Source of the DNA: Candidatus Woesearchaeota archaeon
GTDB lineage: Archaea > Nanobdellota > Nanobdellia > Pacearchaeales > GW2011-AR1
NCBI GenBank assembly: GCA_964514585.1
Contig: CAZETU010000001.1
Coordinates: 120,901 to 144,900 of the forward strand
Length of the DNA: 24,000 nt
Reading direction: 5' to 3'
Positions 3,978-10,079 of this stretch are shown here, one piece after another. The stretch's first letter is position 1, and every line of letters begins with the position of its first letter. The notes below the pieces were generated by a model that was not told the origin of the DNA, ran no database searches, and saw only the letters and a program-made list of their open reading frames with translations. Both the position numbers and the translations under genes were made by a program.

Positions 3978-4027
3978 ACAGAAAATACACAAATATCATA
4001 TATAAATATAGTGATAGCAAAACTTAC

Positions 4028-4057
4028 ATTTCACCAGAAATACCTACTGGGTAAACC
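4028..4057. repeat. Copy D of the ACCA-apex hairpin repeat (atttc-acca-gaaat) followed by acctactgggtaaacc
   Basis: Perfect 5-bp stem at 4028-4032/4037-4041 with loop acca. The adjacent 16-mer at 4042-4057 matches 5662-5677 (tRNA-Arg trailer insert) at 15/16 positions. Confidence 0.6.
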
Positions 4058-4075
4058 AAAACAACATGCGTTTAG

Positions 4076-4101
4076 AAAACTTGTAACACAAGTTTTATAA
4101 A
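4076..4101 (+). promoter_or_regulatory. 8-bp perfect inverted repeat overlapping the rpoN TATA box
   Basis: The arms are aaaacttg (4076-4083) and caagtttt (4089-4096). The second arm runs into ttttataaa (4093-4101), which is centred about 26 nt upstream of the rpoN ATG. That spacing fits a leaderless archaeal promoter. Confidence 0.4.
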
Positions 4102-4340: not shown

Positions 4341-4790
4341 ATGGGAAATATAAAAGTTATCTCTTGGGATGTATACGGAACTTTAATAGCAACACATTAT
4401 GATAAATCCACAGATTGCGGGGACATCCCATTAAAACTTAGACCAAGCGCATTAGAAATTCTAACAGAAATAAAATCAAGACAAATCATTCAATGCACAT
4501 GCTCAGATGGCCACTTGGAAAATCTAAAAAACAATTTAAGAGAAGCAGGAATAAATTGGACAGATTTCTTCGACGATTTATACAAAATGGAACCATTCCA
4601 ACAAAAGGATTTCTCTTACATAATAGAAAATTATAATATTAGACCAGAAAACCTCTTAGTTGTCGGAGACAATTATGATATAGATATCTCTTTAGCAAAA
4701 AGACAAGGTTGCAAAACTTTACACGTCCCAGAAAAAGAAGAGTTCAAAAAGAATCCATTAGACACATCAAAAATACTAGAATTATTATAA
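4341..4790 (+). CDS. HAD superfamily hydrolase (DxYGT subtype)
   Basis: Motif I WDVYGTL, motif II CTCSDG and motif IV VVGDNYDIDI are present. 149 aa. Confidence 0.65.
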   Translation: MGNIKVISWDVYGTLIATHYDKSTDCGDIPLKLRPSALEILTEIKSRQIIQCTCSDGHLENLKNNLREAGINWTDFFDDLYKMEPFQQKDFSYIIENYNIRPENLLVVGDNYDIDISLAKRQGCKTLHVPEKEEFKKNPLDTSKILELL

Positions 4791-4871
4791 ATAGACAGTT
4801 CCGCGTGTTCCCACCAAAGACAGTATGGACACATTAGAACTAGTTAACAAATTCAAAAAATTCTAATTATT
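4789..4871. repeat. Chimeric duplicate: a fragment of the 5S rRNA 3' end fused to a fragment of the rpoN 3' end
   Basis: By my hand alignment, 4789-4832 matches 5442-5485 at 38/44 positions (3' terminus of the 5S gene, minus strand). 4828-4871 matches 4282-4325 at 38/44 positions (last 12 rpoN codons, stop and ttatt). The join is at gacac, which both parents share. Confidence 0.75.
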
Positions 4872-4872
4872 A

Positions 4873-5301
4873 TTAATGCCAGTCATAAAAACCACTACTT
4901 ATAACTTTACTAACAAGATGACGCCTAAGCTCACAATCAGGCATTTGCTCAACCTCTCCATCTCTTATCTGAATGGGCCAACACTGCATTTTTCCTCTTG
5001 CATAATAATCAGGTGATTCTCTTAGATGTTTTTTCGCATCTTCAGGAGACTTACCAAGACAGAAAGCAGATTCATTACATACATAACATTTATCAGGATT
5101 CCCAAAATCATGACGTCTCCTTATGGGAACTTTATAAAGATTCAACTTTTTATTATCTTTTTCGAAATCAAATTCTCCAATCAATAATCCCAGTATTCCC
5201 AGTCCGGCTATTCTATTAAATTGTCTTCTATTCAACATTAAATTAACAAGTGAACCAAGTTTATAATAATTATTGAGATAGATTATTATTAAATTTTTCA
5301 A
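4873..5301 (-). CDS. Hypothetical small Cys-containing protein with a twin-arginine (Tat)-like signal
   Basis: 142-aa ORF. The internal Met22 (start at 5238) gives MLNRRQFNRIAGLGILGLLIG, i.e. an RRxF motif plus a hydrophobic region. The mature part contains CYVC and three more Cys. I recognise no family. Confidence 0.5.
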   Translation of the reverse strand: MKNLIIIYLNNYYKLGSLVNLMLNRRQFNRIAGLGILGLLIGEFDFEKDNKKLNLYKVPIRRRHDFGNPDKCYVCNESAFCLGKSPEDAKKHLRESPDYYARGKMQCWPIQIRDGEVEQMPDCELRRHLVSKVISSGFYDWH

Positions 5302-5388
5302 ATTTTTTCTTTATTCTAATTAATCAGCCGAATAAAGTCAAAAGAAATCAAATTATCTGCGACAAAGTCGGTAAGTAATTTGGAACCT

Positions 5389-5439
5389 AAAATTCTGCAG
5401 AATTTTCCCAATGATTTTTTCACCAGAAAAAATGTTAAT
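5389..5439. repeat. Double-hairpin intergenic repeat, copy A
   Basis: Hairpin 1 is aaaattc-tgca-gaatttt (5389-5406). Hairpin 2 is attttttc-acca-gaaaaaat (5414-5433), a perfect 8-bp stem. 35/48 positions are identical to copy B (6119-6166). Confidence 0.7.
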
Positions 5440-5445
5440 AAAAAT
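5440..5445 (-). terminator. Oligo-T (T5) run directly after the 5S rRNA 3' end
   Basis: The minus strand reads …GAGCTGTCTATTTTTATTAAC. Archaeal RNA polymerase terminates at oligo-T tracts. Confidence 0.4.
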
Positions 5446-5552
5446 AGACAGCTCCGTGCGTTCCCATCAAAGACAGTACAGACACGAACATAACAAGCTT
5501 AACTTCTGAGTTCGGAACGGGATCAGGTGTAACCAAGTTATTATGGCCGTCT
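5446..5552 (-). rRNA. 5S ribosomal RNA (orphan, roughly 107 nt, ends approximate)
   Basis: The reverse complement reads AGACGGCCATAATAACTTGGTTACACCTGATCCCGTTCCGAACTCAGAAGTTAAGC…GATGGGAACGCACGGAGCTGTCT. This contains the universal 5S loop/helix motif CCGAACTCAGAAGTTAAGC, the GGGAAC box, and a terminal helix I (AGACGGC / GCTGTCT). Confidence 0.85.
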
Positions 5553-5570
5553 AACATTACATCAAAATTC

Positions 5571-5582
5571 CATTTTATAAAC
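5571..5582 (-). promoter_or_regulatory. TATA box for 5S rRNA
   Basis: The minus strand reads gTTTATAAAAtg, centred about 25 nt upstream of the 5S 5' end. Confidence 0.45.
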
Positions 5583-5592
5583 TTAACGATTC

Positions 5593-5598
5593 AAAAAA
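5593..5598 (-). terminator. Oligo-T (T6) after the distal tRNA-Arg 3'-end copy
   Basis: The minus strand reads …CAGGAGCGTTGAATTTTTTGA. This is the first T-run downstream of tRNA-Arg. Confidence 0.4.
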
Positions 5599-5620
5599 TT
5601 CAACGCTCCTGACAGGACTT
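5599..5620 (-). repeat. Exact 22-nt copy of the tRNA-Arg 3' end (no cloverleaf partner)
   Basis: ttcaacgctcctgacaggactt is identical to 5683-5704, at an offset of 84 nt. Confidence 0.9.
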
Positions 5621-5687
5621 CACTCACCAGAGGGATGTCAAATGGACGCGATCACCAGATCACCTACTGGGTGAACCTCAGGTTCAA

Positions 5688-5763
5688 CGCTCCTGACAGG
5701 ACTTGAACCTGCGACTTCTTCCTTAGGAGGGAAGCACTCTAATCCAAACTGAGCTACAGGAGC
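5688..5763 (-). tRNA. tRNA-Arg (anticodon CCT)
   Basis: The reverse complement folds as a cloverleaf: GCTCCTG TA GCTC AGTTTGGATTA GAGT G CTTCC CTCCTAA GGAAG AAGTC GCAGG TTCAAGT CCTGT CAGGAGC G. 76 nt, no encoded CCA. Confidence 0.9.
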
Positions 5764-5785
5764 ATAAAACAATCAACAGAAAACT

Positions 5786-5797
5786 CTTTTTAAAATT
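5786..5797 (-). promoter_or_regulatory. TATA box for tRNA-Arg
   Basis: The minus strand reads aaTTTTAAAAag, centred about 28 nt upstream of the tRNA 5' end. Confidence 0.4.
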
Positions 5798-5798
5798 A

Positions 5799-5815
5799 AT
5801 GAGGGAAGGAGGATT
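5799..5815 (-). repeat. Exact 17-nt copy of the tRNA-Leu 3' end
   Basis: atgagggaaggaggatt is identical to 5898-5914, at an offset of 99 nt. Confidence 0.9.
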
Positions 5816-5898
5816 AAAAGTCCTTTACGAACTTTTCAGCAAATCTTTGATTTGCGCTTCAAGCTTCTCCGAAGCGCCGGTCGTTCGAATCCGACACA

Positions 5899-5982
5899 TG
5901 AGGGAAGGAGGATTCGAACCCCCGTAAGCATAAAGCTAACAGATCTTGAGTCTGCCCCGTTTGACCACTCCGGCATTCCCTC
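5899..5982 (-). tRNA. tRNA-Leu (anticodon CAA), long variable arm
   Basis: The reverse complement folds as GAGGGAA TG CCG GAGTGGTCAAA CGG G GCAGA CTCAAGA TCTGT TAGCTTTATGCTTAC GGGGG TTCGAAT CCTCC TTCCCTC A. 84 nt. Confidence 0.9.
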
Positions 5983-6003
5983 ATAATATAACTCAATAAA
6001 TTC

Positions 6004-6013
6004 AATATAAAAA
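6004..6013 (-). promoter_or_regulatory. TATA box for tRNA-Leu
   Basis: The minus strand reads cTTTTTATATtg, centred about 26 nt upstream of the tRNA 5' end. Confidence 0.4.
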
Positions 6014-6050
6014 GTTATTGATAGTTTTCATGAGAAATTATGCGGCGAAG

Positions 6051-6083
6051 CCCATGATTTTTTATGAAATAAAAAATAGATAA
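6051..6083. repeat. Hairpin repeat copy C
   Basis: cccatg + attttttat-gaa-ataaaaaat (6057-6077), a perfect 9-bp stem. The lead-in cccatg parallels cccaatg in copy A and cctaacg in copy B. Confidence 0.55.
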
Positions 6084-6115
6084 TATCCGAAATTTATTTC
6101 CAGAAACTATCCCTA

Positions 6116-6166
6116 GGAATTCTAAAAAATTCCCCTAACGATTTTCACACCAGTGAAAATATTAAT
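6116..6166. repeat. Double-hairpin intergenic repeat, copy B
   Basis: Hairpin 1 is ggaatt-ctaaaa-aattcc (6116-6133). Hairpin 2 is attttcac-acca-gtgaaaat (6141-6160), a perfect 8-bp stem. The stem differs from copy A by paired (compensatory) changes. Confidence 0.7.
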
Positions 6167-6290
6167 TCATCTATGCGCGGCCGTTGATTAGGATCGTTGC
6201 GTAGCTTAGGTTTTTGGTTGGGTATTAGGCGAGATAAAAACCTCAGCCTATCTTTCCTAAGAATGCTGATTAAGAGCCCGACAAAGCCCC

Positions 6291-7538
6291 TTAAATTGCC
6301 TTTGTGGGCGTTTTGTAGCACTTGTTATCTTCTAGTAGCCATTTCCAAACTGGCATCAGAATTATTTCCTTGCTTTCAATTTCAAATTTGTCCTCTTGAT
6401 TATGTGTTAAGATTAGCCCCTGTTTTAGCTTCAATTCATTCATTGCTTCCAGTAAGCCATTTATTTCCCTATCTCTATTTTCTTTATTAAAATCATAGCA
6501 AACCTGAATTGCTTGAATAACTTTTTCTTTCTCTTTAACTATAAAATCACATTCTTTGTCTTTTTGAAAATAAAATATTTCTTTGTATTTTTTTCTTAGA
6601 TTTAGGAATACTTCATTTTCTAGCATTTTCCCTTTATCTTTTGAAAAGGAAACTGAGTTAGCATAAGAGAGTCCATTATCTATGGAATAGACTTTTTTTG
6701 GATTAACTTGCTGTTTTTTGTAGGAGTAGCTAAATTTAGGTATTGTGAAAATTAAATAAGAATCCTCCAAGTAAGAAATATAGTCTATGATTGTTTGGAC
6801 TGATTTGACTTCTAACATTTTTTTAAGAGAGTTTGCGGAGAATTCTTTTCCAACATTACTTAATAAATAAATTGCTAATTTATTTAGTATAGCGGTATTT
6901 TTAATCCCAAACCTATTGACTATGTCTCTCATTAAAACATCTCTTAATAATTCATGCAAGAGAGTTTCGTCATCATCTTTTAAGAATTCTGGAAATCCTC
7001 CTTTGTATAAATAATCTGAATAAGATTTTTCATTTGGTTTCTGCTTGGAGAATCTTAAAAATTCAGTATAAGAAAATGGAAAGAGCTCGTAGCTTAAGTG
7101 TCTTCCAGTAAGTCTTGTCCCAAGTTCTCGGCTTAGAAGTGATGCATTTGAACCTGTTATCATTACTTTGTTTTTTCTGTCCACTAAATATCTAATGAAT
7201 TTTTCCCATTTGTCAATATTTTGAATCTCATCAAAAAAGTAAACTCCTCCAGCGCCATAAATTTCATTAAAAATTTCTTCTGCGATATTGAAATCTGTTA
7301 GCTTAAAACCTTCTAGTCTAGGGTCTTCAAGATTTAGATAATAAAAAACTTTTTGTCCTTTTAGAATTTGATTCAGAAGGGTGCTCTTTCCGCATCTTCT
7401 AATCCCTGCAACAACTAAGGCAAAGGACTTATTCAATTTTATTTCTTCAGTCTTTTCTCTAGAGATACCTTTTTCAGTTGATTCTACCCATTTTCTTTGT
7501 TCTTTTATTACTTTGGTTAGGTCTTCTTTTGTTATCAT
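6291..7538 (-). CDS. AAA+ ATPase with C-terminal DUF4143 domain (COG1373-type)
   Basis: Walker A GIRRCGKST and Walker B VYFFDEIQ are present. The AAA_14-type LTGRHLSYELFPFSYTEFL motif is also present. It is followed by the DUF4143-like region (…GKEFSANSLKKML…YLEDSYLIF…). Confidence 0.85.
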   Translation of the reverse strand: MITKEDLTKVIKEQRKWVESTEKGISREKTEEIKLNKSFALVVAGIRRCGKSTLLNQILKGQKVFYYLNLEDPRLEGFKLTDFNIAEEIFNEIYGAGGVYFFDEIQNIDKWEKFIRYLVDRKNKVMITGSNASLLSRELGTRLTGRHLSYELFPFSYTEFLRFSKQKPNEKSYSDYLYKGGFPEFLKDDDETLLHELLRDVLMRDIVNRFGIKNTAILNKLAIYLLSNVGKEFSANSLKKMLEVKSVQTIIDYISYLEDSYLIFTIPKFSYSYKKQQVNPKKVYSIDNGLSYANSVSFSKDKGKMLENEVFLNLRKKYKEIFYFQKDKECDFIVKEKEKVIQAIQVCYDFNKENRDREINGLLEAMNELKLKQGLILTHNQEDKFEIESKEIILMPVWKWLLEDNKCYKTPTKAI

Positions 7539-7558
7539 GTTTTATATAAGATATTTAA

Positions 7559-7618
7559 TTTTATAAAGGTTTCTATTGGGAATGGAAACTTCTTTCTATT
7601 GGGAATGGAAACCTTTAT
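7559..7618 (-). promoter_or_regulatory. TATA box plus two exact 20-nt direct repeats (period 23) framed by an 11-nt inverted repeat, upstream of the ATPase gene
   Basis: tttctattgggaatggaaac occurs at 7570-7589 and 7593-7612. The outer inverted repeat is ataaaggtttc (7563-7573) / gaaacctttat (7608-7618). On the minus strand cTTTATAAAA (7559-7568) is centred about 25 nt upstream of the ATG at 7538. Confidence 0.55.
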
Positions 7619-7753
7619 GTTAACTCTATCCCCTCCCCTAAGCCCCCCACGTCAGTACTATCATACATACATATTATGCCGACTGACTCTTTGGTAATTT
7701 TGTTTAATTTTCATCGACGATAAACTCTGTCCTACACCCAAGAAATCGGAGTC

Positions 7754-8383
7754 CTATTTTTGGGCTTTTTTTGCTAATTTTACTAGCTTATCTAGCCTCG
7801 ATTTTACATATCTTTTGTCAACTGCATCACCATATTTTTTATATTTTTTCACCTTATTTCTATCCGTCACAACGAAAAACCACTTATCATAATTTTCCAA
7901 AACTTTCAGCTTCTCTTTCATCCTACTAATTTTAGAAAAGATGGAACCCGTTTCAATTTCAATCGCAAATCTCTTTCCACGAATTTCAAAAACAATATCC
8001 GGTTTTTTAGTCACAAATAATTCCGTTTCAATCCCATTCTTTTCTAAGAACTCAGAAATATTCTTAGTTAGAAATAGGTGAGTAAAACTTTCATTATGTC
8101 TTGGGAGCAAAAGAAAGTCTTCCATTTTCCCATTCAAGAGATTTTTATATTTTTTAATTTGATAATCATCATTCAAGAGATATTTGACTTCGTGTTTGGT
8201 TATATTTTTCTTATGAAAATATCTTTTATCTGAATCAACTTTTATATTCACACTTCTTCGATAGGTTCCAATAGGCAGAGGTTTATATGGTTCTTCATCT
8301 TCAGTCTCTTCAGAGTCTAATTCTTCATTTTTATCATCCACAGCATATTCTAAATTTACTTTCCCAATTTTCTTCTTCGGCAT
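7754..8383 (-). CDS. Hypothetical protein with a PD-(D/E)XK-like nuclease-fold motif; probably longer at the N terminus (up to 8647)
   Basis: 209-aa ORF. The C-terminal half reads …THLFL…KKPDIVFEIRGKRFAIEIETGS…WFFVV, a D…ExE pattern in a beta-strand context. The acidic N-terminal region is low complexity. The frame stays open upstream (see findings). Confidence 0.55.
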   Translation of the reverse strand: MPKKKIGKVNLEYAVDDKNEELDSEETEDEEPYKPLPIGTYRRSVNIKVDSDKRYFHKKNITKHEVKYLLNDDYQIKKYKNLLNGKMEDFLLLPRHNESFTHLFLTKNISEFLEKNGIETELFVTKKPDIVFEIRGKRFAIEIETGSIFSKISRMKEKLKVLENYDKWFFVVTDRNKVKKYKKYGDAVDKRYVKSRLDKLVKLAKKAQK

Positions 8384-8622
8384 TTTCTTAATCCTTTCTT
8401 TTTCCTCAAGTTCCCATTTTTTATAATTTCTACGCGATTTGTAACGGAAAAATATTAAGAGGATTATTCCAAGAAAAGCAATAGAAAAAATAGTAATAAT
8501 AAAAATCGGATTAATAATGAAAGAGAATAACTTACTAGGAAATTCTTGAATGTTCTTTTTAATTTTTTGAAGTGGTTCTGCAAGAATGACTAAAAGAGCT
8601 CCTACGGATAATAAAAATGGAA

Positions 8623-9825
8623 CTAATGCGTCGTCAGAAGTTTCAATCTTATTGCCTCCTGAATATTTCCATAAACTCGATTAACATCCACCGTTATCGC
8701 AACCATCTGCCTTTTCATATTTTCAACCTGAACTTCTAGTAACTCTGACCTATTTTCTGATTTTGTAAGTCGCTTTTCTAATTCTGTTTTAGTTACATCA
8801 ATTAGTAAATCCTCTTCAGAAATTGTATCTCTCATCCCAAGCATTTCAGAATAATAATGAATCTTGTCAGATTTCTTCCATCCGAATCTGAATTTTAATG
8901 CTGATTCGGATTTGTATCTTGGCAACCAATAGCAACAACTGCAATGCCTAAAATCATACATTGTTAAATCAGAATATTTCTGGCCTGCCAAGCTTTTTTC
9001 ATCACCAAATAGTTTTTTAGCAACTCTTTTCAAATAACGATTCACGACTGGCGGACTAAATTTGAACAGATAATCTTCTGTATCTAATTCATTCTCCTTG
9101 ATGTATCTTTTAACTAATTCGGAACAAATCATCAGCTTAATCCTTCTTCCGAAAGTTTTGCTTATTTCATCCCGAATGTTCAACTCCTTAAAATCCTTAG
9201 ACAAATCAGAAACTTTCACATTCATTAATTCAGTTGGAGACCTAATTCCTGTATCAAATAAAAACATCACAATCGTCTTATATTTTGGGTTGCAGTTTTC
9301 GGAGAATAATTTTATTTGCTCTTCATTTAAATAAACCCATTTGGGTTTCTCTCTAGAAGTATCTAAGTAAGTTGTAATATCTTCAACCTCTTTTCCCGCC
9401 TTCCTTGCGACTTTTTGATACCAGTGCCAGAATGCCTTAAACATCTTGACAAAGTCTCGTGTCGCCTTATATTCGCGCCCGTCCTGCCGTCTTATCACTC
9501 CCTTTCTCATATCAACAAAGAATTGGCAGAGTTGTTGCTCTGTCAATTTAGTCAAGTCATCAACATCTAAAACTTCTTTAAATTTTCTAGTCAGAAAAGT
9601 TAGTCTGAGCCTAATCGTATTAAGTCTTATAAAACTTCTAGCACCTTTTTTCGAAGATAAGGAAGTGTTGATTCCAAGTTCCATATCAATCAAGTATTGT
9701 AGAATTATTGACGAGTTAGCTCTGGAGAGGTCAGGAATGCCCCCTGCTTCCTTGACTCTATTTTTCCAACGGGTCAGCGACCCTTCGTGGTTATAAGGAT
9801 CAATCTTCATGGTGTCAGTGTCCAC
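8623..9825 (-). CDS. Tyrosine recombinase / phage-type integrase
   Basis: 400 aa with a GTG start. It carries box I FDTGIRSPTEL (catalytic Arg), box II YDFRHCSCCYW (HxxR-like), and a C-terminal …SDKIHYYSEML that holds the candidate catalytic Tyr. Confidence 0.85.
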   Translation of the reverse strand: MDTDTMKIDPYNHEGSLTRWKNRVKEAGGIPDLSRANSSIILQYLIDMELGINTSLSSKKGARSFIRLNTIRLRLTFLTRKFKEVLDVDDLTKLTEQQLCQFFVDMRKGVIRRQDGREYKATRDFVKMFKAFWHWYQKVARKAGKEVEDITTYLDTSREKPKWVYLNEEQIKLFSENCNPKYKTIVMFLFDTGIRSPTELMNVKVSDLSKDFKELNIRDEISKTFGRRIKLMICSELVKRYIKENELDTEDYLFKFSPPVVNRYLKRVAKKLFGDEKSLAGQKYSDLTMYDFRHCSCCYWLPRYKSESALKFRFGWKKSDKIHYYSEMLGMRDTISEEDLLIDVTKTELEKRLTKSENRSELLEVQVENMKRQMVAITVDVNRVYGNIQEAIRLKLLTTH

Positions 9826-9967
9826 ATGGACGCGTTATTTAATAATTGTCGAGAACGAAAGAATATAATAGACTGGACAGGACATCTGCTAATTCTTGTT
9901 TTTTTCTGTTTCATTTAGTTTATTTCTAAACAAAAAGTAGTCCCACCAAGATGCCAAAAAGGTAGAA

Positions 9968-10079
9968 TGCGCGGGCGGGGACTCGAACCCCGGTCATTTG
10001 GTCTCTTCATTGAAGGCAATAGATATTCCATCAACTAAACATTTGGAAGCCAAATATTCTGCCACTAAACTACCCACGC
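9968..10079 (-). tRNA. tRNA-Gly (anticodon TCC) with a 41-nt intron at the canonical 37/38 position
   Basis: The reverse complement folds as GCGTGGG TA GTTT AGTGGCA GAAT A TTTGG CTTCCA[intron]A CCAAA TGAC CGGGG TTCGAGT CCCCG CCCGCGC A. The exons sum to 71 nt. Confidence 0.85.

Follow-up and report, generated by a model that had tools for sequence, protein, structure and literature searches.

At two places in a 24,000-nucleotide (nt) stretch of DNA from a Candidatus Woesearchaeota archaeon (G000:C1:120901-144900, here called the window), 48-nt sequences that resemble each other, A (5392-5439) and B (6119-6166), lie beside RNA genes or their remnants and carry hairpins with the same ACCA loop. 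The locus raises the question of whether such sequences form a family defined by its structure and, if so, what that family is. Relatives of the host's TBP protein are found in metagenome-assembled genomes that bear the labels Pacearchaeota, Woesearchaeota or Nanoarchaeota, which makes the host a DPANN archaeon. In its genome (G000; 1.04 Mb, 18 contigs, ~37% G+C), A and B were found to belong to two of 12 copies of an element of ~105-140 nt, named family 1, in which pairing is conserved and which begins at the ends of genes. An intergenic repeat family that conserves its structure through compensatory stem changes, as proposed in an earlier note on this DNA, does exist.

Anatomy, pairing and placement of the family-1 element

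All of the stretches quoted in the earlier note were recovered where it had placed them. The likeness of A and B is real, with 36 rather than the hand-counted 35 of 48 positions identical, and the second hairpin of each is as described, an 8-base-pair (bp) perfect stem with an acca loop and paired differences between the two stems. The note had extended the family to other hairpins by a shared C-ACCA-G apex. A genome scan for CACCAG-centred palindromes yielded seven with perfect 8-bp stems, all of which have flanking sequence in common with A and B. Hairpins with an ACCA or TGGT loop on a stem of at least 8 bp numbered 7, compared with 0.23±0.42 in 40 first-order Markov genomes, whereas stems of at least 4 and at least 5 bp gave 27 versus 37±6 and 15 versus 10±3, respectively, at or below chance. 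Because of these counts, the long-stem class is taken to be real and the short-stem apex motif to be uninformative; the apex alone therefore cannot join the hairpins at 5650-5661, 5623-5632 and 4028-4041 to the family.

A profile made from the seven palindrome copies detected four more clear copies and one diverged copy, and a covariance model (R1) detected all 12 at E<=8e-5. Together with further copies from relatives, 58 were collected from six species. In G000 the copies are dispersed singly, inverted pairs not being the rule. On the gene-sense strand, which is the minus strand of the window, the parts follow in the order hairpin a (HP-a), hairpin b (HP-b), a two-part hairpin c (HP-c) and often a fourth hairpin or a UUCG-hairpin module, and the 3′ boundary is variable. 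HP-a, T(C/T)(A/G)AC-ATTTTNNC-UGGU-GNNAAAAT-C-GT(T/C)(G/A)G, is 31 nt long and has a 13-14-bp stem with one bulged C. HP-b has a 7-bp stem and a variable loop (UGCA, ACACA or GAAA), and HP-c occurs in at least four subtypes. The two hairpins per copy that had been noticed are genuine and correspond to HP-a and HP-b, but the element has three or four, of which the 48-nt copies cover only these two. In the G000 copies, tracts of four to six U are found in the 5′ arm of HP-a, at the end of HP-b and, in 10 of the 12, past HP-c; in most of these copies tracts of at least four U lie at about +7, +47 and +96, and 39 of the 58 copies have two or more. Copy A begins just past the 3′ end of the 5S gene (5443), behind a TTTT run, and is closed by the T4 run at 5340-5343; its UGGU loop on the minus strand is the acca at 5422-5425 on the plus strand. 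Copy B begins 13 nt past a copy of the tRNA-Gly 3′ end (6174-6183), and its terminal T-run lies at 6067-6077.

Covariation is present among the further copies and becomes stronger as more of them are included. In the alignment of the 58 copies, which was fitted to the model and leans toward the model's structure, 94% of stem cells hold standard pairs (77% in shuffles), and 20 of the 23 pairs show changes on both sides. The number of cells changed on both sides, 219, compares with 60±9 in the shuffles and was reached in none of 500, and pairing fell to 39-61% when the 3′ partners were slid as a control. Plain MAFFT alignments show the compensations as well. The commonest HP-c subtype is represented by 32 copies; its outer stem occurs with 19 different arm sequences around a fixed core, CTTACCG...CGCAGA, and 30 of the 32 copies keep 6-7 contiguous perfect pairs. 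A 5S-linked copy in the genome of another species, G047, has a 20-nt HP-c core identical to that of copy A inside a compensated outer stem, CAAACCG/CGGTTTG. HP-b, HP-c and the fourth hairpin keep their pairing and not their sequence. In HP-a the loop is TGGT in ~46 of the 58 copies and the arm positions beside it covary (TTC/GAA, CAC/GTG, CGC/GCG, CCG/CGG). The closing pair is either C-G or G-C; since G-UGGU-C variants exist, it is the UGGU loop, the bulged C and the lower stem that are conserved, not the closing pair. Identity does not rise above ~90% for any pair of copies; they are therefore old, yet they still fold.

The element is most reasonably read on the gene-sense strand, with a UGGU loop rather than the ACCA under which it was originally described, an assignment that is moderately supported. 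The base of HP-a is a U·G pair in 48 of the 58 copies, and in the rest of HP-a and HP-b the sense strand has 25 G·U cells versus 10 A·C cells. On the minus strand, copy B forms three hairpins with a folding energy of -27.9 kcal/mol (z=-4.15), versus -15.0 kcal/mol on the plus strand; the folding of copy A is neutral between strands. The terminal T-runs and the fixed orientation to the upstream gene described below also favour the sense strand.

The copies had been said to flank RNA genes or promoters. The actual rule is that they start a few nt from the 3′ end of a protein, 5S or tRNA gene on the same strand. In 10 of the 12 G000 copies, an open reading frame (ORF) of 102-721 aa on that strand ends 0-4 nt before HP-a, one of the stops falling inside the first bases of the element. 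These ORFs encode TBP, TFS, the ribosomal proteins S2 and S10, proteasome alpha and a protein with a xylose-isomerase-like TIM-barrel domain, and four have no Pfam match. The remaining two copies are A, behind 5S rRNA, and B, behind a tRNA-Gly 3′-end copy matching at nine of ten positions. Over all 58 copies, a protein ORF ends between -4 and +9 nt from HP-a in 35, with all three stop codons in use and the stop inside the element in six; two more copies lie behind 5S and one behind tRNA-Gly. The orientation is always gene-sense. In the other species the upstream genes are again core genes (L15e, FtsZ, SecY, aIF5B, NDK, SBDS, PolB and others). The downstream genes are unrelated to one another, as are their proteins, which rules out a cassette tied to the downstream gene. 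A strand bias linked to replication was also rejected: contig C1 has all nine of its copies on one strand, but 67% of its genes lie on that strand as well, and orientations are mixed within G047 contigs. The contig itself has a strong and uniform GC skew, (G-C)/(G+C) being -0.17 to -0.45 in every 20-kb bin, and a 2:1 excess of minus-strand genes over 344 kb with no switch point.

The position of copy B can be explained by the history of the locus (Table 1). The tRNA-Gly end copy at 6174-6183 is likely the far boundary of the integrase cassette. In the relative G041, tRNA-Leu lies 2 nt past tRNA-Gly without a cassette (L213, G041:C4:109400-109560), while in G000 the two genes are set apart by the 3.8-kb cassette (6174-9977), copy B and a module of another family, family 3. 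This comparison supports integration of the cassette at the tRNA-Gly 3′ end. Because the two tRNA genes adjoin in G041 and because one G047 copy begins 5 nt past a tRNA-Gly gene, copy B most likely once lay directly behind tRNA-Gly, before the cassette was inserted.

Two further gene-end duplications were seen nearby. A copy of the tRNA-Leu 3′ end lies ~100 nt downstream of the gene (5799-5815 / 5898-5914) and is kept, with different spacers, in G041 (L213) and G003 (L210), and is therefore a maintained feature rather than a one-off insertion scar. A chimeric fragment at 4782-4874 consists of a 3′ part of 5S (84% identical to 5435-5485) fused to a copy of the rpoN 3′ end. Divergence of its 5S-like flank sets in at the point at which copy A would start with HP-a, and, judged by this sequence, the fragment may preserve the state of the 5S locus before insertion.

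Table 1. Features mapped around the two family-1 copies (window coordinates)
Feature	Position	Strand	Basis or remark
tRNA-Gly with intron	9968-10079	-	
Integrase cassette, 3.8 kb, between tRNA-Gly and copy B		-	
tRNA-Gly 3′-end copy, cggccgcgca	6174-6183	-	9/10 identical to 9968-9977
Family-1 copy B	6066-6168	-	model R1, 98 bits, E=2.7e-14 (6060-6168)
Copy B HP-a: upper stem ATTTTCAC/GTGAAAAT, UGGU loop (plus-strand acca 6149-6152), bulged C	6135-6165	-	
Copy B HP-b: GGAATT...AATTCC	6116-6133	-	folding
Copy B HP-c, two-part	6078-6112	-	folding
Family-3 module: long hairpin, CUUCG apex, directly 3′ of copy B	6027-6068	-	nhmmer E=1.4e-5
tRNA-Leu	5898-5983	-	
tRNA-Arg	5687-5764	-	
Family-2 fragment in tRNA-Arg trailer insert, holds 5650-5661 hairpin	5650-5677	-	direct repeat D17, 15/16 identical; nhmmer weak, E=0.95
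5S rRNA	5443-5554	-	Rfam RF00001, 74 bits; copy A adjoins 3′ end
Family-1 copy A	5340-5441	-	nhmmer E=7.7e-20; covariance model R1, 88 bits, E=1.5e-12 (5332-5441)
Copy A HP-a: lower stem, bulged C, 8-bp upper stem ATTTTTTC/GAAAAAAT	5408-5438	-	sequence, consensus fold, pair counts
Copy A HP-b: AAAATTC-UGCA-GAATTTT, 3′ arm = U4 tract	5389-5406	-	
Copy A HP-c, two-part: outer stem CAAATTA/TAATTTG, conserved core CTTACCGACTTTGTCGCAGA inside	5349-5382	-	centroid fold
Family-2 element, core TTTACCCAGTAGGTATTTCTGGTGAA, holds 4028-4041 hairpin	4017-4080	-	nhmmer E=1e-10; direct repeat D17

Other hairpin modules of the window

As a family definition, the C-ACCA-G apex had lumped three unrelated things: family 1, a second repeat family and a junction palindrome. 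The junction is the stretch at 6057-6077 that had been listed as a third copy, C, and is formed by the terminal T-run of copy B paired with an A-run of family 3. The hairpins at 4028-4041 and 5650-5661 are members of family 2 instead, recognised by flanking sequence, since they have in common a 16-mer beyond the hairpin that is identical at 15 of 16 positions. The hairpin at 5623-5632 has only the 10-mer CTCTGGTGAG in common with family 2, and from that short match may be a second family-2 fragment.

The core of family 2 is TTTTTACCCAGTAGGTA(T/G)CTCTGGTGAGCTAAG, and across species a core of ~26 nt is 100% conserved. G000 has ~8 copies, some of them in a 58-nt tandem array that an assembly gap interrupts at C1:289.2 kb (C1:289194-289472; L215, L219); this array has a gene of the opposite orientation on either side, and a stop codon is supplied by its CTTAG. 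The family occurs in 24 of the 49 species and frequently takes the form of 54-60-nt tandem arrays of near-identical units (L220, L224, L231). An identity as clustered regularly interspaced short palindromic repeats (CRISPR) was rejected, because whole units repeat (88-100% identical) and there are no unique spacers. In four of five G000 loci family 2 lies 20-45 nt upstream of a TATA box, and the 4017-4080 element is ~25 nt upstream of that of a minus-strand gene. The apex in relatives, AGCUC-UGGU-GAGCU, resembles a tRNA D-arm. Several copies in relatives lie 50-450 nt from 5S genes.

Family 3 is a ~47-nt long hairpin, TTCCATAAAAAAT...CTTCG...ATTTCTCATGGA, with a C(UUCG)G-type apex (in the window at 6027-6068; also L016:1639-1685, L054, L069 and L070). 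A recurrent A·C mismatch in this orientation would be a G·U pair on the other strand. By BLAST the family has relatives in nine of the 49 genomes searched in the genus. It lies directly behind ~13-17 of the 58 family-1 copies, including all three of its matches in G000, and elsewhere occurs without family 1, for example behind 5S in G041 and G019. The gene-end system is therefore a mosaic of hairpin modules. A further module, CCGACTTGGC(T/G)G followed by a GCGAAA...TTTCGC hairpin, was seen 130-200 nt past family-1 starts (L054, L063, L058, L065; G047, G041).

Distribution of family 1 and readings of its role

Among the 49 species searched in the genus (E<=0.05), at least 45 copies were found in G047, 12 in G000, two each in G003 and G015, and one each in G005 and G041; the other 43 species had none. 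When 150 further genera of the family were searched, with one genome for each, there was a single weak match, similar in architecture. In the 43 species in which a 5S gene was found, the element lies behind it only in G000, G003 and G047, and the 40 others have a plain T-rich trailer; in G003 the first T-run past the 5S gene is the element's own. The spacer between the TBP and FKBP genes is filled in G000 and empty in G003, G041 and G001. Five of the carriers fall into one subclade of a tree based on TBP only, with G047 far off. Together with the 20-nt HP-c core common to G047 and copy A, this hints at transfer between lineages, a single-gene tree being weak evidence. No Rfam 15 match was found over the element, either for the window at the gathering score or at relaxed E cut-offs of 10 and 1 (window and loci L003, L066 and L187), and we found no account in the literature of such an element in DPANN archaea. 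The family is real and new to the catalogues, while its general kind, structured intergenic mosaic repeats at gene ends, is known.

The functions suggested in the earlier note (terminator or insulator, protein-binding site, non-coding RNA, miniature mobile repeat) include the two readings that we rank first and second. The first, in which we place about even confidence, is that the element is a mosaic repeat, similar to the repetitive extragenic palindromic (REP) sequences and bacterial interspersed mosaic elements (BIME), that acts as a 3′-end terminator or stabiliser and is restricted to a few Pacearchaeota-type (DPANN) species. The upstream gene would have the element as its transcribed trailer. 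The several U-tracts of the element would provide the archaeal termination signal, at which RNA polymerase pauses and aCPSF1 binds, and its hairpins would protect the 3′ end against 3′-to-5′ decay and prevent transcription from running on into the next gene, the genome being very compact. HP-a might serve as a sequence-specific recognition hairpin for a protein. The family may have spread by copying, as bacterial REP/BIME or BOX repeats do, and most present copies would be old and held by selection on the fold. We arrive at a compound terminator or protective trailer because the U-tracts are at fixed places and because in Methanococcus a larger number of U4 tracts goes with higher termination efficiency and aCPSF1 binding (PMC8716108). 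A feature of intrinsic-type terminators, a stable hairpin and then a U-tract past the gene end, is also discernible in the copies, as U4-6 forms the end of HP-b and, in 10 of the 12 G000 copies, comes after HP-c.

Several points weigh against a role in termination or protection. Transcription, the transcript 3′ ends and the strand are all deduced from sequence, and the mean folding energy over all copies is equally good for either strand (-34.9 versus -34.2 kcal/mol), which made whole-element folding energy uninformative as a strand indicator. T-runs and A-runs are about equally frequent past stop codons genome-wide, so that T-runs were discarded as a genome-wide signature, and the U-tract of HP-a itself would halt the polymerase ahead of the synthesis of the hairpins. 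Hairpins are not known to be required for archaeal termination. Most congeners do without the element, so any host function must be dispensable. Finally, template-switch correction during replication can keep perfect palindromes symmetric without selection on RNA, and covariation alone is therefore no proof of such selection.

A more specific version of the terminator reading, which we regard as doubtful, is that HP-a, with its UGGU tetraloop, bulged C and lower stem, docks a dedicated RNA-binding factor, the unit being a portable, structure-dependent 3′-end or termination signal and the family-2 UGGU hairpin a second class of site for the same factor. If true, this would be a hairpin-dependent terminator class in a domain in which U-tracts and aCPSF1 alone are thought to suffice. 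The (A/U)GNN-type loop on a ~14-bp stem also suggested a site for an Rnt1-like RNase III, but this was rejected, as no RNase III domain was found in G000, G047, G003, G005 or G041.

The second-ranked reading, unlikely on balance, is that the element is selfish, non-autonomous mobile DNA, comparable to miniature inverted-repeat transposable elements (MITE), palindrome-associated transposable elements (PATE) or REP sequences. The hairpins would be recognition structures in single-stranded DNA for a transposase supplied in trans, there would be no host role, and the position past stop codons would reflect target preference together with removal of harmful insertions. The spread from none to at least 45 copies among congeners speaks for it, as do the empty orthologous sites at 5S and in the TBP-FKBP spacer and the stop codons that some ORFs take from inside the element. 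So do the HP-c subtypes common to several species, with different subtypes behind the same gene (L15e, 5S) in different species, and the core common to copy A and the distant G047. At the empty sites no target duplication could be defined, as the intergenic sequence has diverged too far, even in the nearest species available, for an alignment that spans the junction. No terminal inverted repeats were found: in the alignments, the sequence of the 5′ end (TCAACATTTTTTC...) does not recur in inverted form at the 3′ end. The lack of copy pairs above ~90% identity also goes against mobility, and from purifying selection alone one would expect a looser spacing to gene ends than the 0-5 nt observed.

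Both expanded genomes encode Y1 (IS200-type) transposases (PF01797), two in G000, each with one in-frame TGA, and five in G047. However, these genes have no flanking element copies and unrelated end hairpins, no family-1 match lies within 2 kb of them in G000 or G047 (best E=0.38, filters off), and Y1 genes occur in 10 element-free species and are missing from four carriers. The two G000 matches have identical scores (C5:31193-31552 and 59638-59997; L201, L202). Family 1 as the ends of an IS200/IS605 element or RAYT gene was accordingly rejected, on the unflanked genes, the different end hairpins and the weak genus-wide association. As for an autonomous parent, longer matches (130-166 nt) hold only other hairpin modules and no related insertion sequence was found near the Y1 genes, other transposase families not having been surveyed. 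Retro-mobilisation was discarded because G047, with its 45 or more copies, has no reverse transcriptase domain RVT_1, although G000 and G003 do, and a TnpB/omega-RNA right end because the upstream genes are unrelated core genes and zinc-ribbon matches are weak.

Rather improbable, in our estimate, is that the element is a double-stranded DNA site, with HP-a as the core for a recombinase or an architectural protein, its inverted arms set about an asymmetric CTGGTG spacer and its edges comparable to attC R''/R' or origin recognition boxes. The sequence of HP-a is unusually conserved for a structural stem, its centre is asymmetric, its edges, T(C/T)(A/G)AC ... GT(T/C)(G/A)G, loosely resemble RYYYAAC/GTTRRRY, and copy B adjoins the boundary of the integrase cassette. 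On the other hand, the free covariation of the arm positions beside the loop would be incompatible with a DNA protein that reads bases, the other hairpins retain pairing only, HP-a at 31 nt is too short for attC, and the copies are scattered behind core genes without cassette arrays or origin clusters. Origin recognition boxes as such were rejected, the copies being dispersed and co-oriented with genes.

The weakest proposal, that the copies are independent genes for structured small RNAs with promoters of their own, merely located behind other genes, fits the multi-hairpin architecture, the strong covariation and the terminal U-tract, but we consider it very improbable, given that there is no conserved TATA- or B recognition element (BRE)-like box, that the 25-30 nt before HP-a are unrelated coding sequence, that the variable parts are stems rather than single-stranded guides, and that there are no C/D or H/ACA boxes and no Rfam match. 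CRISPR, C/D, H/ACA, selenocysteine insertion sequence (SECIS) and tRNA-like identities were rejected for lack of boxes, unique spacers and Rfam matches.

DPANN archaea are uncultivated and have tiny, packed genomes, and their transcript ends and tolerated repeats are almost wholly undescribed. With 58 aligned, strongly covarying copies that are anchored to gene ends and have a fixed tetraloop, there is enough for a covariance model, a metatranscriptome search and a test in a model archaeon. Congeners with at least 45 copies and with none indicate that archaeal genomes of the symbiont type, 1 Mb in size, allow mosaic repeats in the style of REP/BIME to expand. If family 1 were only a selfish repeat, it would still be a marker of strain and lineage history, of ordinary interest.

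Comparison with known repeats and terminators

Like integron attC sites, family 1 starts at or overlaps the stop codon of the preceding ORF and has a hairpin with an extrahelical base and motifs at the stem base that loosely fit RYYYAAC/GTTRRRY. An attC site, however, is a single hairpin of 57-141 nt with R''/L''-L'/R' boxes and is found in cassette arrays beside an integron integrase, whereas HP-a has ~31 nt and family 1 is scattered over sites behind core and RNA genes. Cassette arrays were not seen, although no search was aimed at an integron integrase. The PATEs derived from IS200/IS605 are likewise rich in hairpins and without terminal inverted repeats, and Y1 transposases are present in both expanded genomes; family 1 differs from them in that the resident IS200-type copies have unrelated end hairpins and that the association with Y1 across the genus is weak.

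The BOX, RUP and SPRITE repeats of Streptococcus pneumoniae and the Correia/NEMIS elements of Neisseria are similar to family 1 in size (~100-150 nt), in their modular construction (boxA-boxB-boxC), in being strongly folded and in being dispersed beside genes. These elements have terminal inverted repeats and/or target duplications and occur on either side of genes, while in family 1 no terminal inverted repeats were found and position and orientation are fixed to the end of the upstream gene. With the archaeal U-tract terminators that act with aCPSF1/FttA (PMC8716108), family 1 has in common two or three tracts of at least four U within ~100 nt past the gene end. Archaeal terminators described so far do not form conserved repeat families and do without hairpins, whereas in family 1 the U-tracts lie in or after covarying hairpins and the whole unit is repeated.

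Compared with the REP/BIME repeats of enterobacteria and pseudomonads, family 1 is archaeal, adjoins the stop codon and has three or four different hairpins per unit instead of one 35-nt palindrome; it also has no GTAG head, no inverted REPIN pairs and no RAYT-type gene flanked by copies. REP sequences mobilised by a RAYT transposase are imperfect palindromes of only 20-40 nt that start with a conserved tetranucleotide and often form inverted pairs. Both are nevertheless extragenic, lie at the 3′ ends of transcription units, keep their structure through compensatory changes, combine hairpin modules in mosaic fashion and vary widely in copy number between close relatives. REP/BIME repeats have roles in stabilising the upstream mRNA and in termination.

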